A stretch of DNA of 32,000 bases from Dehalococcoidia bacterium (GTDB lineage Bacteria > Chloroflexota > Dehalococcoidia > Lucifugimonadales > CATOSD01): the NCBI GenBank assembly GCA_965217565.1, contig CBDCIS010000003.1:550876-582875 (forward strand), read 5' to 3'. This document shows, in pieces, positions 5,137 through 6,982 of the stretch. The position numbers and the translations under genes were made by a program. The notes beneath the pieces were generated by a model. The model saw only the letters and a program-made list of their open reading frames with translations. It was not told the origin of the DNA and did not search any database. The first letter of the stretch is position 1, and each line of letters begins with the position of its first letter.

Positions 5137-5988
5137 CTAGATGCTCGCTGGCAGCCGCTTGCCGTCCACGAAGTCCTGGATTGCGCTCGATACGGCATCG
5201 GGGCGTTCCATGTACATGTTGTGGCCCGTGTCCTCCACAGTCAGCACGTGGAATTCGGGTATCTCGGCCTCCAGCGTGTCCAGGAGTGGGTAGCCCTTCT
5301 TGCGCTCCGCGCTCACGACGTACAGCATCGGAACGCCAAGCGCGCGGAACGCCGACCGCAGGTCCACGTAGTCGCCGACGCGCTCCTCCCAACTCATCGT
5401 GACCTGCGCCCACTTCATGTCGATGGAGCCGTCGGGCAGCTTCATCGTCTCCAGCGCGACCACGTCGCGGATGACGTCGTCGCGCCAGCGGCCGGCCGCC
5501 GGGTGCTGCTTGAGGAAGGCGTACATATTCTCGCGGCTCGGCCAGGTGCGGCGCGGACGAACCGGCCTGTCCGCGCGTGAGACCCTTCGCTGGAACGCCT
5601 CGTCAACCACTACCATCGGCTCCAGAAGGATTAGCCGGCGGAAGGTTCCGGGCAGGCGGTGAGCGACGAGCGTCATCACGACTGCGCCGGTGGAGTGGGC
5701 CACGCCGATAGCGTCCCTCAGCCCGATGCTCTCGCAGAACGCCGTAAGGTCGCCGGTCCTGTCCTCGAACCGGTAGCCCGTGTCCGTCCAATCGCTGTCG
5801 CCGCTTCCCCGGCAGTTGAGGGCGATGATGTGGAAGCGGGAGCGCAGGTCTCTGGCTACGGCGTCCCAACTCCTGTTGGTGCGCATGTCGCCGTGCACCA
5901 GCAACATCGGCGGCCCGTTGTCTCCCCAGTCCACGTAGCGAAGCCGGATGTCGCGCACGCTGACGACGTGCTCAGTTGGGGCTGGCAT
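5137..5988 (-). CDS. Alpha/beta-fold hydrolase
   Basis: LLVHGD oxyanion region, nucleophile elbow GVAHSTGA, C-terminal DTGHNMYMERPD histidine motif. Confidence 0.85.
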   Translation of the reverse strand: MPAPTEHVVSVRDIRLRYVDWGDNGPPMLLVHGDMRTNRSWDAVARDLRSRFHIIALNCRGSGDSDWTDTGYRFEDRTGDLTAFCESIGLRDAIGVAHSTGAVVMTLVAHRLPGTFRRLILLEPMVVVDEAFQRRVSRADRPVRPRRTWPSRENMYAFLKQHPAAGRWRDDVIRDVVALETMKLPDGSIDMKWAQVTMSWEERVGDYVDLRSAFRALGVPMLYVVSAERKKGYPLLDTLEAEIPEFHVLTVEDTGHNMYMERPDAVSSAIQDFVDGKRLPASI

Positions 5989-6059
5989 GGTTTGCGCGCT
6001 CAGTCGAGCAGGTCGAGCTTCTGGAGAATGGCAGGCAGCTCGCTCTTTTCGTCGTCGGT
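5948..6059. repeat. Left copy of 112-bp direct repeat (duplicated operon junction)
   Basis: Aligns with 6871-6982 at a constant 923-bp offset, 109/112 identical. Confidence 0.9.
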
Positions 6060-6087
6060 CACCGGCTGAACCGCACGAATGTTGCGC

Positions 6088-6116
6088 TTGACAAAGTGGC
6101 GAGTGTGATGTAACAT
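6088..6116 (+). promoter_or_regulatory. Sigma70-like promoter TTGACA-17-TAACAT for the NYN gene
   Basis: Perfect -35 at 6088-6093, 17-nt spacer, -10 TAACAT at 6111-6116, about 80 nt upstream of the ATG at 6198. Confidence 0.4.
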
Positions 6117-6197
6117 TCCTTTATATCCCCCCCTGTCGCTTCTGGTGGCAGGGCAGCAAGGCCACCTTTGCGGTGGTCTTTGCATTTCTGCGAAACT

Positions 6198-6869
6198 ATG
6201 GCTACTAACATCTACGTTGACGGGTTCAACCTGTACTACGGCTCGGTCAGAAGATTCCCACAGTTCAAATGGTTGGATCTTGCCAAGTTGTGCGGCAGGC
6301 TTTTGCCAAACCACCCAATCGCGAGAATCAGATACTTCACTGCTCGCGTCAATGCTTCACCAAACGACACACAGGCGCCCTTAAGACAAGATGTCTATCT
6401 CCGTGCCTTGAGAACGTTACCCAACCTCCAGATCCACTTTGGAAGATTCGCTTCACGGGAAGTTTACATGCCTCGTTCGCCGCTCAAGTATCTCCCCGGT
6501 CAGAACAGGCCTGACACCGTACCTGTTGTCAGAACCGAAGAGAAACGTTCCGACGTGAATTTGGCCAGCTATCTGTTGCTGGATTGCTTCGACAAAGATT
6601 TCGATGATGCAGTTATTCTATCCAACGACTCTGATTTAACGCTTCCTGTCAAGATAGTGACCACGAGATTTGGCAAGTCAGTCGGCATGATAAACCCGCA
6701 TCGCAGCAAGCAACTGAGTAGCGAGTTAAGGAAGGTCACTGCTTTCCAGATAAGATCCATCAACAGGTCAGTCTTGGCCGCCAGCCAGTTTCCTGATGAA
6801 TTGACAGATGCTGACGGAACATTCCACCGGCCCTCTCGGTGGCGACGAGTTCCTTCCCGCCGTCATTGA
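6198..6869 (+). CDS. NYN-domain (LabA/PIN-like) putative ribonuclease
   Basis: N-terminal IYVDGFNLYYG and central EEKRSDVNLA...DDAVILSNDSDL acidic motifs typical of NYN/PIN-like nucleases. Lower GC than the flanks. No clear RBS. Confidence 0.8.
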   Translation: MATNIYVDGFNLYYGSVRRFPQFKWLDLAKLCGRLLPNHPIARIRYFTARVNASPNDTQAPLRQDVYLRALRTLPNLQIHFGRFASREVYMPRSPLKYLPGQNRPDTVPVVRTEEKRSDVNLASYLLLDCFDKDFDDAVILSNDSDLTLPVKIVTTRFGKSVGMINPHRSKQLSSELRKVTAFQIRSINRSVLAASQFPDELTDADGTFHRPSRWRRVPSRRH

Positions 6870-6870
6870 A

Positions 6871-6982
6871 ATGCCGCGCACGCTGACGACGTGCTCAATT
6901 GGGGCTGGCATGGTTTGCGCGCTCAGTCGAGCAGGTCGAGCTTCTGAAGAATGGCAGGCAGCTCGCTCTTTTCGTCGTCGGT
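6871..6982. repeat. Right copy of 112-bp direct repeat
   Basis: See 5948-6059. It begins 1 nt after the NYN stop codon. Confidence 0.9.

Follow-up and report, generated by a model that had tools for sequence, protein, structure and literature searches.

In the genome of a Dehalococcoidia bacterium (phylum Chloroflexota), a gene for a NYN-domain nuclease of the HEC-09 family lies on the plus strand between two minus-strand genes, one encoding a DHDPS-family (DapA-like) protein and the other an alpha/beta hydrolase, and it is bracketed by two nearly identical copies of the junction of these two genes. The stretch analysed, hereafter the window, comprises 32,000 nucleotides (nt) of contig CBDCIS010000003.1 (positions 550,876 to 582,875, forward strand); coordinates are counted from its first nucleotide unless another locus is named. 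Compared with three further loci (L002, L163 and L172), the arrangement is best explained by a single duplicative insertion that took place long ago in an ancestor shared by at least four of the marine Chloroflexota lineages sampled, and that would have brought in a promoter, a small structured RNA and the nuclease gene as one module, the duplicated gene ends having since been kept alike by gene conversion. We put the probability of this explanation, taken as a whole, at roughly 0.7. The features concerned are the following.

5137 to 5988, minus strand: intact alpha/beta hydrolase gene, 283 amino acids (aa; Pfam Abhydrolase_6, E = 2e-19), its first 13 codons plus 2 nt inside the left repeat copy
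5948 to 6059, no strand assigned: left repeat copy, made of the functional hydrolase head (5948-5988), an 11-nt spacer (5989-5999) and an orphan DHDPS tail (6000-6059)
6060 to 6087, minus strand: outer part of the orphan DHDPS tail, decayed, probably host-derived and not homogenised, homologous to the orphan tails of L172 and L002
6088 to 6116, plus strand: sigma-70-type promoter, TTGACA (6088), 17 nt, TAACAT (6116), at the left end of the cassette; conserved in L002, L172 and L224
6124 to 6190, plus strand: structured RNA of ~64 nt (covariance model R1, 61 bits, E = 5e-16)
6198 to 6869, plus strand: NYN-domain nuclease gene, 223 aa, HEC-09 family (PF01936), its stop 1 nt before the right copy
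6871 to 6982, no strand assigned: right repeat copy, made of an orphan hydrolase head (6871-6911), spacer (6912-6922) and the functional DHDPS tail (6923-6982)
6923 to 7846, minus strand: intact DHDPS-family (DapA-like) gene, 307 aa (Pfam DHDPS, E = 7e-57)

Anatomy of the repeat pair

The two copies align without gaps over 112 bp at a fixed offset of 923 bp and differ at three positions (5951 t/c, 5975 g/a and 6024 g/a), which reproduces exactly what a preliminary description of this DNA had reported; a repeat-finding program lengthens the pair to 118 nt at 96% identity. On the source contig (L001), blastn recovers the same pair with E = 6e-52, so that it cannot be put down to chance. The reading of the repeat unit as a DHDPS tail, an 11-nt spacer and a hydrolase head, with an orphan tail left behind on the left and an orphan head on the right, is likewise borne out. 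The orphan DHDPS tail in the left copy consists of 19 codons and a stop, its functional counterpart ends in TDDEKSELPAILQKLDLLD before the stop, and the orphan hydrolase head starts with an ATG at 6911 and runs for 13 codons plus 2 nt (MPAPIEHVVSVRG). Similarity does fade to the right of the copies, as had been stated, but there is no clean stop, since about 10 nt past 6059 can still be aligned with one indel (TCAG-CCGGTG versus TCAGACCGCTC). The GC content is ~0.65-0.69 in the flanks versus 0.47-0.52 in the roughly 810 bp (811) between the copies.

That the cassette was inserted at an operon junction was checked against DHDPS-gene relatives taken from marine metagenomes. Indeed, about 15 of them have the hydrolase start 19-32 nt after the DHDPS stop, with no NYN gene in between, and orthologues of the hydrolase stand directly 3' of DHDPS at these empty sites. 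The duplication leaves both flanking genes intact, each accompanied by an orphan copy of the other's end, in agreement with the preliminary description.

The contig comes from a metagenome and is labelled 5x, and the L163 scaffold breaks into Ns inside the left copy, which would suit a chimeric join or a collapsed repeat. Such an artefact is nevertheless hardly credible: the copies differ at three positions and have 811 bp of unique coding sequence between them, the architecture recurs in four assemblies made by different projects, and for both the NYN and the DHDPS protein there are records from two contigs. With copies that differ at three sites and four independent assemblies that agree, assembly chimerism was rejected.

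Age of the insertion

In the window as in L002, L163 (TARA) and L172, which come from independent projects, a NYN gene occupies the same junction on the strand opposite to its neighbours. The edges of the duplication also agree. Codon 13 is where the orphan hydrolase head ends in the window and likewise in L163, and the same truncated orphan head is found in L172 and L002. The window and L002 have in common a 1-nt deletion (TCAG-CC) at the outer edge of the orphan DHDPS tail, and homology among the orphan tails extends as far as the -35 box in the window, L172 and L002. In L172 the orphan tail can be aligned with the functional tail of the same genome across the segment that matches window positions 6060-6087; these 28 positions in the window are, judging from the relatives, probably a decayed piece of the host DHDPS tail. 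A host origin for this segment would bring the ancestral duplication to ~120-136 bp. The extent of what was inserted is indicated by L224, where a 78%-identical NYN gene stands at a different site, after a PriA-like gene: its similarity to the cassettes starts only at TTGACA, and the cassette is therefore taken to run from the promoter to a few nucleotides past the NYN stop, about 790 bp.

Between the window and L002, L163 or L172, nucleotide identity is 80-82% for DHDPS, 76-77% for the hydrolase and 79-82% for NYN; among the latter three it is 88-89%, 83-87% and 80-81%, respectively. The divergence of the NYN gene thus parallels that of the host genes, which indicates that the insertion is old rather than recent. 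The near-identity of the copies could be taken as the mark of a recent event. Such a view finds no support, since the same insertion is present in at least four lineages, with matching boundaries and with an identity of orphan to functional copy that runs from 97% down to 63%.

A recent origin could also be imagined separately for each lineage, by independent insertions through some site-specific mechanism, itself unknown, that cuts the junction with a stagger of ~112-120 nt. The orphans of the window and of L163 do match the genes of their own genome, the orphan head ends at the same codon in both, and the GC content of the cassette is below that of its flanks. However, in L002 and L172 the orphans of the same insertion are decayed or mosaic and have derived indels in common, and NYN divergence keeps pace with that of the host genes. 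Nor is the low GC content a sign of recency, because it is family-wide: in 78 of 81 loci the NYN gene is lower in GC than its flanks, the mean difference being 6.7 points. Moreover, the targets of other NYN cassettes are unrelated and their duplications differ in length, and no recombinase is present. Recent independent insertions are on these grounds quite improbable.

Probable homogenisation of the two copies

If the insertion is old, the near-identity of the copies in the window calls for another account than youth. The orphan and functional copies are 97.3% identical over 112 nt in the window and 92% over 65 readable nt in L163, where the scaffold turns to Ns inside the left copy; in L172 the comparison is mosaic, with a perfect patch of ~45 nt in a background of 60-67%, and in L002 identity is 63%. 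Complete junction units compared between genomes are 59-72% identical. In each genome the orphans go with that genome's own genes. The block of identity starts and stops abruptly, and farthest out the duplicate is decayed. Since identity within a genome exceeds identity between genomes, and since the tracts are mosaic and abruptly bounded, we infer that intragenomic gene conversion has homogenised the copies of an old duplication. Conversion would have acted in the window lineage (over a 112-bp tract) and in L163, partially in L172 and not at all in L002.

With copies homogenised in this way, their near-identity does not date the insertion. A near-perfect flanking duplication may thus mimic a fresh insertion, which matters wherever insertions are dated by the identity of their repeats. 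If true, a flanking duplicate kept by conversion would also be a built-in route for scar-free excision.

Bracketing duplications at other NYN loci

The preliminary description had proposed a search for other NYN cassettes flanked by long duplications. Such a search was run on 80 NYN loci from species-representative genomes (which hold more than 574 HEC-09 loci), 78 of them testable, and comparable duplications do recur: direct repeats closely bracket the NYN gene in 9 of the 78, versus 6 of 401 shifted control positions (odds ratio 8.6, p = 1e-4). In the clear cases it is the ends of local host genes that are duplicated, as follows.

L029: 62 nt at 87% identity, from the 3' end of a SpoU methylase gene
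L037: 68 nt at 88% identity, from the 5' end of a DUF1156/D12 methylase gene
L035: ~75-100 nt, the 3' end of a gene together with its terminator
L017: 27 nt, the initial 8 codons of an open reading frame (ORF) on the minus strand and 3 nt upstream of it
L015: 33 nt, a short host segment
L075: at least 52 nt at 100% identity, a host segment lying at the edge of the contig

The targets of the bracketed cassettes are unrelated, their repeats measure 21-124 nt, the distance from repeat to gene is variable and the cassettes are 811-2379 nt long, with the RNA motif inside the bracket in every case. No terminal inverted repeats or shared ends were found in 8 bracketed cassettes, the best inverted-repeat scores falling within the range of shuffled sequences. 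Among the loci fetched, no syntenic partners gave clean empty sites for the other bracketed NYN loci. Candidate defence genes often lie nested within intact operons, and at these loci the embedding has left a visible footprint: host gene ends are duplicated over tens to more than 100 bp, neither neighbour is broken, and the pattern recurs at unrelated targets.

Mode of insertion

The module of promoter, ~64-nt RNA and NYN gene would have landed between the DHDPS-family gene and the hydrolase gene downstream of it, and in doing so would have duplicated the final ~23-27 codons of DHDPS, the spacer and the 13 opening codons of the hydrolase. From the family-wide survey, we infer that the original event was not site-specific and used no machinery encoded by the element. 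The likeliest routes would be a staggered break with fill-in and end joining, a switch of replication template, or a pair of illegitimate joins made at offset positions. Where genes are tightly packed in an operon, the only joins to survive selection would be those that overlap, and the outcome would be duplication rather than deletion.

The absence of a transposase, an integrase, terminal inverted repeats and an attC-like site, noted in the preliminary description, is confirmed. Neither a transposase nor an integrase is present in the window or among the genes called on 20 kb of L001, NYN being the sole annotated protein gene of the cassette. The window cassette has no terminal inverted repeats, and at its 3' end there is no attC-type imperfect palindrome: the NYN stop lies 1 nt from the repeat, with no inverted repeat there. 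The literature searched describes no mechanism for gene embedding. A dedicated insertion mechanism of an unusual kind is conceivable. The idea that a target duplication of more than 100 bp is without precedent does not stand, since IS1634/IS1549 elements make target duplications of 8-514 bp.

This range lends some appeal to a scheme in which a transposase of the IS1634/IS1549 type acts in trans and the cassette is its non-autonomous passenger, the more so as duplication length varies among NYN loci. Yet the 8 bracketed cassettes have neither terminal inverted repeats nor conserved ends and vary in length and content, and no transposase is found in the window or in the 20-kb L001 stretch, so that transposition in trans is very improbable.

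Another possibility is integration of the Campbell type, in which a circle carrying the NYN module and one copy of the junction, itself produced by recombination between the repeats of a donor, enters by a single homologous crossover, the module then spreading among relatives by excision and re-integration. A single crossover of such a circle gives exactly the topology observed, RecA-mediated recombination can act on a repeat of 112 bp, the module is frequent on plasmids and viral contigs, and the 3' part of the L002 orphan tail is nearer to an L163-type junction than the functional tail of L002 itself is. The first duplication, however, could not be created in this way. NYN divergence tracks that of the host genes, and the shared decayed edges favour vertical descent. 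Furthermore, the duplications at some other loci, of just 27-33 nt, are of marginal length for homologous recombination, and bracketing repeats are absent from the copies on mobile elements (none in 34 plasmid and viral NYN loci). We regard Campbell-type integration as unlikely.

Other cargo at the junction

The junction between DHDPS and hydrolase is a hot spot that accepts alternative single-gene cargo. In L164-L171, which have the closest DHDPS protein (89-90% aa identity), an opposite-strand gene for a 216-aa nitroreductase is found there and NYN is not (for example L165 5005-5655, minus strand). The DHDPS genes of these loci are 81% identical to that of the window at the nucleotide level, no closer than those of the NYN-bearing L163 and L172. 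No flanking duplication was detected around the nitroreductase cassette at this junction, and its GC content equals that of its flanks. In L116 (4992-6835), an insert of ~1.6 kb at the junction contains a frame-broken DUF7380/DUF4209 gene on the operon strand, which the close relative L117 lacks.

On the other side of the hydrolase, the region up to an enoyl-CoA hydratase gene varies among relatives (window 2513-5132; L001 279-2799; L002 801-4814; L163 866-1195). The window has there a 647-aa repeat-rich protein (ankyrin-like by eye) and a 195-aa ORF, with McrBC genes a little farther upstream on the source contig; two N6/N4 DNA methyltransferases occupy the region in L002, and a helix-turn-helix (HTH) protein in L163. 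The neighbourhood as a whole looks like a variable island.

Points against a single old insertion

Several observations weigh against an explanation by one ancestral insertion followed by conversion. The best empty sites belong to relatives whose DHDPS protein is at most 78% identical, no very close empty-site relative having been found, and the pre-insertion sequence is consequently deduced rather than observed. The nitroreductase in the genomes with the closest DHDPS means that a single ancestral gain of NYN must have been followed by a replacement, or else that NYN was gained more than once. In the window taken alone, the segment past the repeat has no significant similarity to the functional DHDPS tail. 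If a single conversion tract ran across the whole repeat, orphan sequence would replace a functional gene end, and repeated conversion together with selection must be assumed. As for the survey, the number of bracketed loci is small, and at least one of the positives (L025) is a dispersed repeat and one (L036) a duplicated module. Finally, in L038 an 89-nt direct repeat (8403-8491 and 9425-9513, 97%) surrounds a low-GC, opposite-strand DUF3800 gene of 230 aa, which means that the mechanism may have nothing to do with NYN.

A small structured RNA accompanies the nuclease gene

TTGACA-17-TAACAT is the sole promoter-like site found between the copies. It would not simply drive the NYN gene but would start a conserved small structured RNA, whose motif begins ~7 nt downstream of the -10 box. 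The RNA is built of a first hairpin (CCCUG...CAGGG), a GCGA/GCAA linker, a GC-rich, terminator-like second hairpin and a U-run, and in the window it folds with -32.4 kcal/mol (z = -3.2). In a MAFFT alignment of 33 instances, 91.9% of cells pair, versus 35-55% with slid partners; 14 of the 18 pairs have compensatory changes, and none of 500 shuffles reaches the observed values. The covariance model matches in 82 of 83 NYN loci, always within 400 nt of NYN, and finds nothing in 447 kb of DHDPS-relative loci without NYN. Besides the window, the motif lies next to NYN in L002-L082, L163, L172 and L221-L223 and on viral loci.

In 64 of the 83 loci the motif precedes NYN and shares its strand. In the two other orientations it stands on the opposite strand, either upstream of NYN (10 loci, Acidobacteriota) or just past its 3' end (7 loci, mostly Actinomycetota). 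Tandem copies (2-3) occur at six loci, and the window has a single one. The RNA therefore behaves like a separate small RNA gene and not only like a leader. The promoter would first transcribe a small RNA ending in the terminator-like hairpin, and NYN would be expressed by read-through. Judging from its architecture, the module would work as an RNA-protein pair.

The RNA is also found beside NYN on plasmids of E. coli, Leptospira and Phaeobacter and on ~22 viral contigs. One of these (L221) is the 3461-bp E. coli plasmid pKMi006_5 (NZ_CP091696.1); the identical 3.46-kb plasmid occurs in four E. coli genomes. The only genes annotated on pKMi006_5 encode NYN, a VbhA-family antitoxin and an HTH protein, and the RNA motif (341-401) lies just upstream of NYN. 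The motif is unannotated in RefSeq E. coli records. Against Rfam 15 (4227 covariance models), the window region gave no relevant match at E <= 5, two weak matches falling outside 6124-6190, and 11 NYN loci gave none at gathering level. No NYN-associated RNA motif is described in the literature searched. In L036 (5930-5993 and 6676-6772), a second copy of the motif occurs 3' of NYN and is followed by a degenerate NYN start (ATG changed to a TGA-like triplet); it looks like the remnant of a tandem second module.

The NYN nuclease

The window protein matches Pfam NYN (PF01936) over residues 3-179 with 34.8 bits against a cut-off of 24.2, and the PADLOC HEC-09 model over its full length (E = 7.4e-41, profile positions 6-203 of 203). 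An AlphaFold2 model (pLDDT 90.5) has as its best Foldseek matches 2qip (LabA-like) and the NYN domain of MARF1 (5yaa, 6fdl), with a probability of 1.0 and target TM-scores of 0.65-0.69; sequence searches of NCBIfam and the PDB gave nothing useful. Across 40 homologues, D119, D144 and D146 are invariant and D8 nearly so, and these acidic residues are probably the equivalents of D358, D426 and D452 of MARF1. The ancestral stop codon is gone in the window gene (TGA/TAA changed to CGA), which has gained 7 codons. The family is large, with 5283 matches, 439 plasmid records and 48 viral contigs.

Other features of the junction

One further feature overlaps the left copy and the promoter.

6000 to 6116, minus strand: small upstream ORF of 38 aa (MLHHTRHFVKRNIRAVQPVTDDEKSELPAILQKLDLLD, then the stop), its stop 11 nt ahead of the hydrolase ATG

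Equivalent open ORFs in L172 (38 aa) and L002 (44 aa) abut or overlap the hydrolase ATG, and this ORF of the orphan tail may serve to preserve translational coupling to the hydrolase. At the other end of the cassette, window 6841-6870 has ~17 nt more than L163, L172 and L002, including a second, imperfect end of a hydrolase head (GACGGCGGG) which may be the remnant of an older orphan head. The DHDPS-family protein scores 150 bits against TIGR00674, under the cut-off of 206 for true DapA. A tRNA-Val of 89 nt (anticodon GAC) called by Aragorn at 5930-6018 on the plus strand spans the coding junction of hydrolase and DHDPS tail; it is probably a false positive and was treated as spurious.

Comparison with known systems

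By its original definition HEC-09, a candidate defence gene in PADLOC, lies embedded within Hma defence operons (Payne et al., bioRxiv 10.1101/2024.01.29.577857). The window gene resembles it in its NYN/MARF1-like fold, conserved acidic residues, single-gene format and position between the genes of another operon, but it sits between metabolic genes whereas the published HEC-09 lies inside a defence system. The representative tested gave no protection against the phages used (bioRxiv 10.1101/2024.01.29.577857). HEC-09 is possibly half of a pair, which could explain why a function of the protein has been hard to demonstrate. Duplications or direct repeats receive no mention in the HEC-09 paper, as searched (bioRxiv 10.1101/2024.01.29.577857).

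As at IS1634/IS1549 insertions, the NYN loci have direct target duplications of tens to hundreds of bp that vary from copy to copy; those elements, however, have a DDE transposase and inverted-repeat ends, and the NYN cassette has neither. The att duplications of prophages and of integrative and conjugative elements, and the integrase-less remnants known as cis-mobilizable elements (CIMEs), offer another parallel, in that a direct repeat of a gene end flanks the element and the target gene stays intact. Unlike att-type elements, the NYN loci have no integrase and no element-borne att site, and their repeats are the local host's own and differ at each locus.

Dispersed repeats such as rRNA operons and tuf genes are known to undergo concerted evolution through gene conversion. 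The NYN repeats are like them in being far more identical within a genome than between genomes, and they show mosaic tracts and decayed edges. They differ from rRNA operons and tuf in being only ~112 bp long, half functional gene end and half orphan, and in surrounding a foreign cassette.

The order of elements in the window, with the promoter at 6088-6116, the RNA at 6124-6190 and the NYN ATG at 6198, matches that of type III toxin-antitoxin systems (RNA gene, terminator, toxin gene). As in the type III toxin-antitoxin and abortive-infection systems ToxIN, CptIN and TenpIN, a promoter, a structured RNA and a terminator-like hairpin precede a predicted endoribonuclease gene, and the modules are carried on small plasmids and phages. 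On the other hand, the nuclease has the NYN fold and is not ToxN-like, in contrast to ToxN, CptN and TenpN, and its RNA is usually single-copy and may be divergent from or convergent with the gene (17 of 83 loci). The likeness to type III systems is one of resemblance only. It is conceivable, though doubtful, that HEC-09-type NYN and the ~64-nt RNA form a new and widespread two-component system of the type III toxin-antitoxin or abortive-infection kind, distributed from E. coli plasmids to marine Chloroflexota, which is embedded in operons by a recombinase-free, gene-preserving duplication and whose duplicate is kept by gene conversion.

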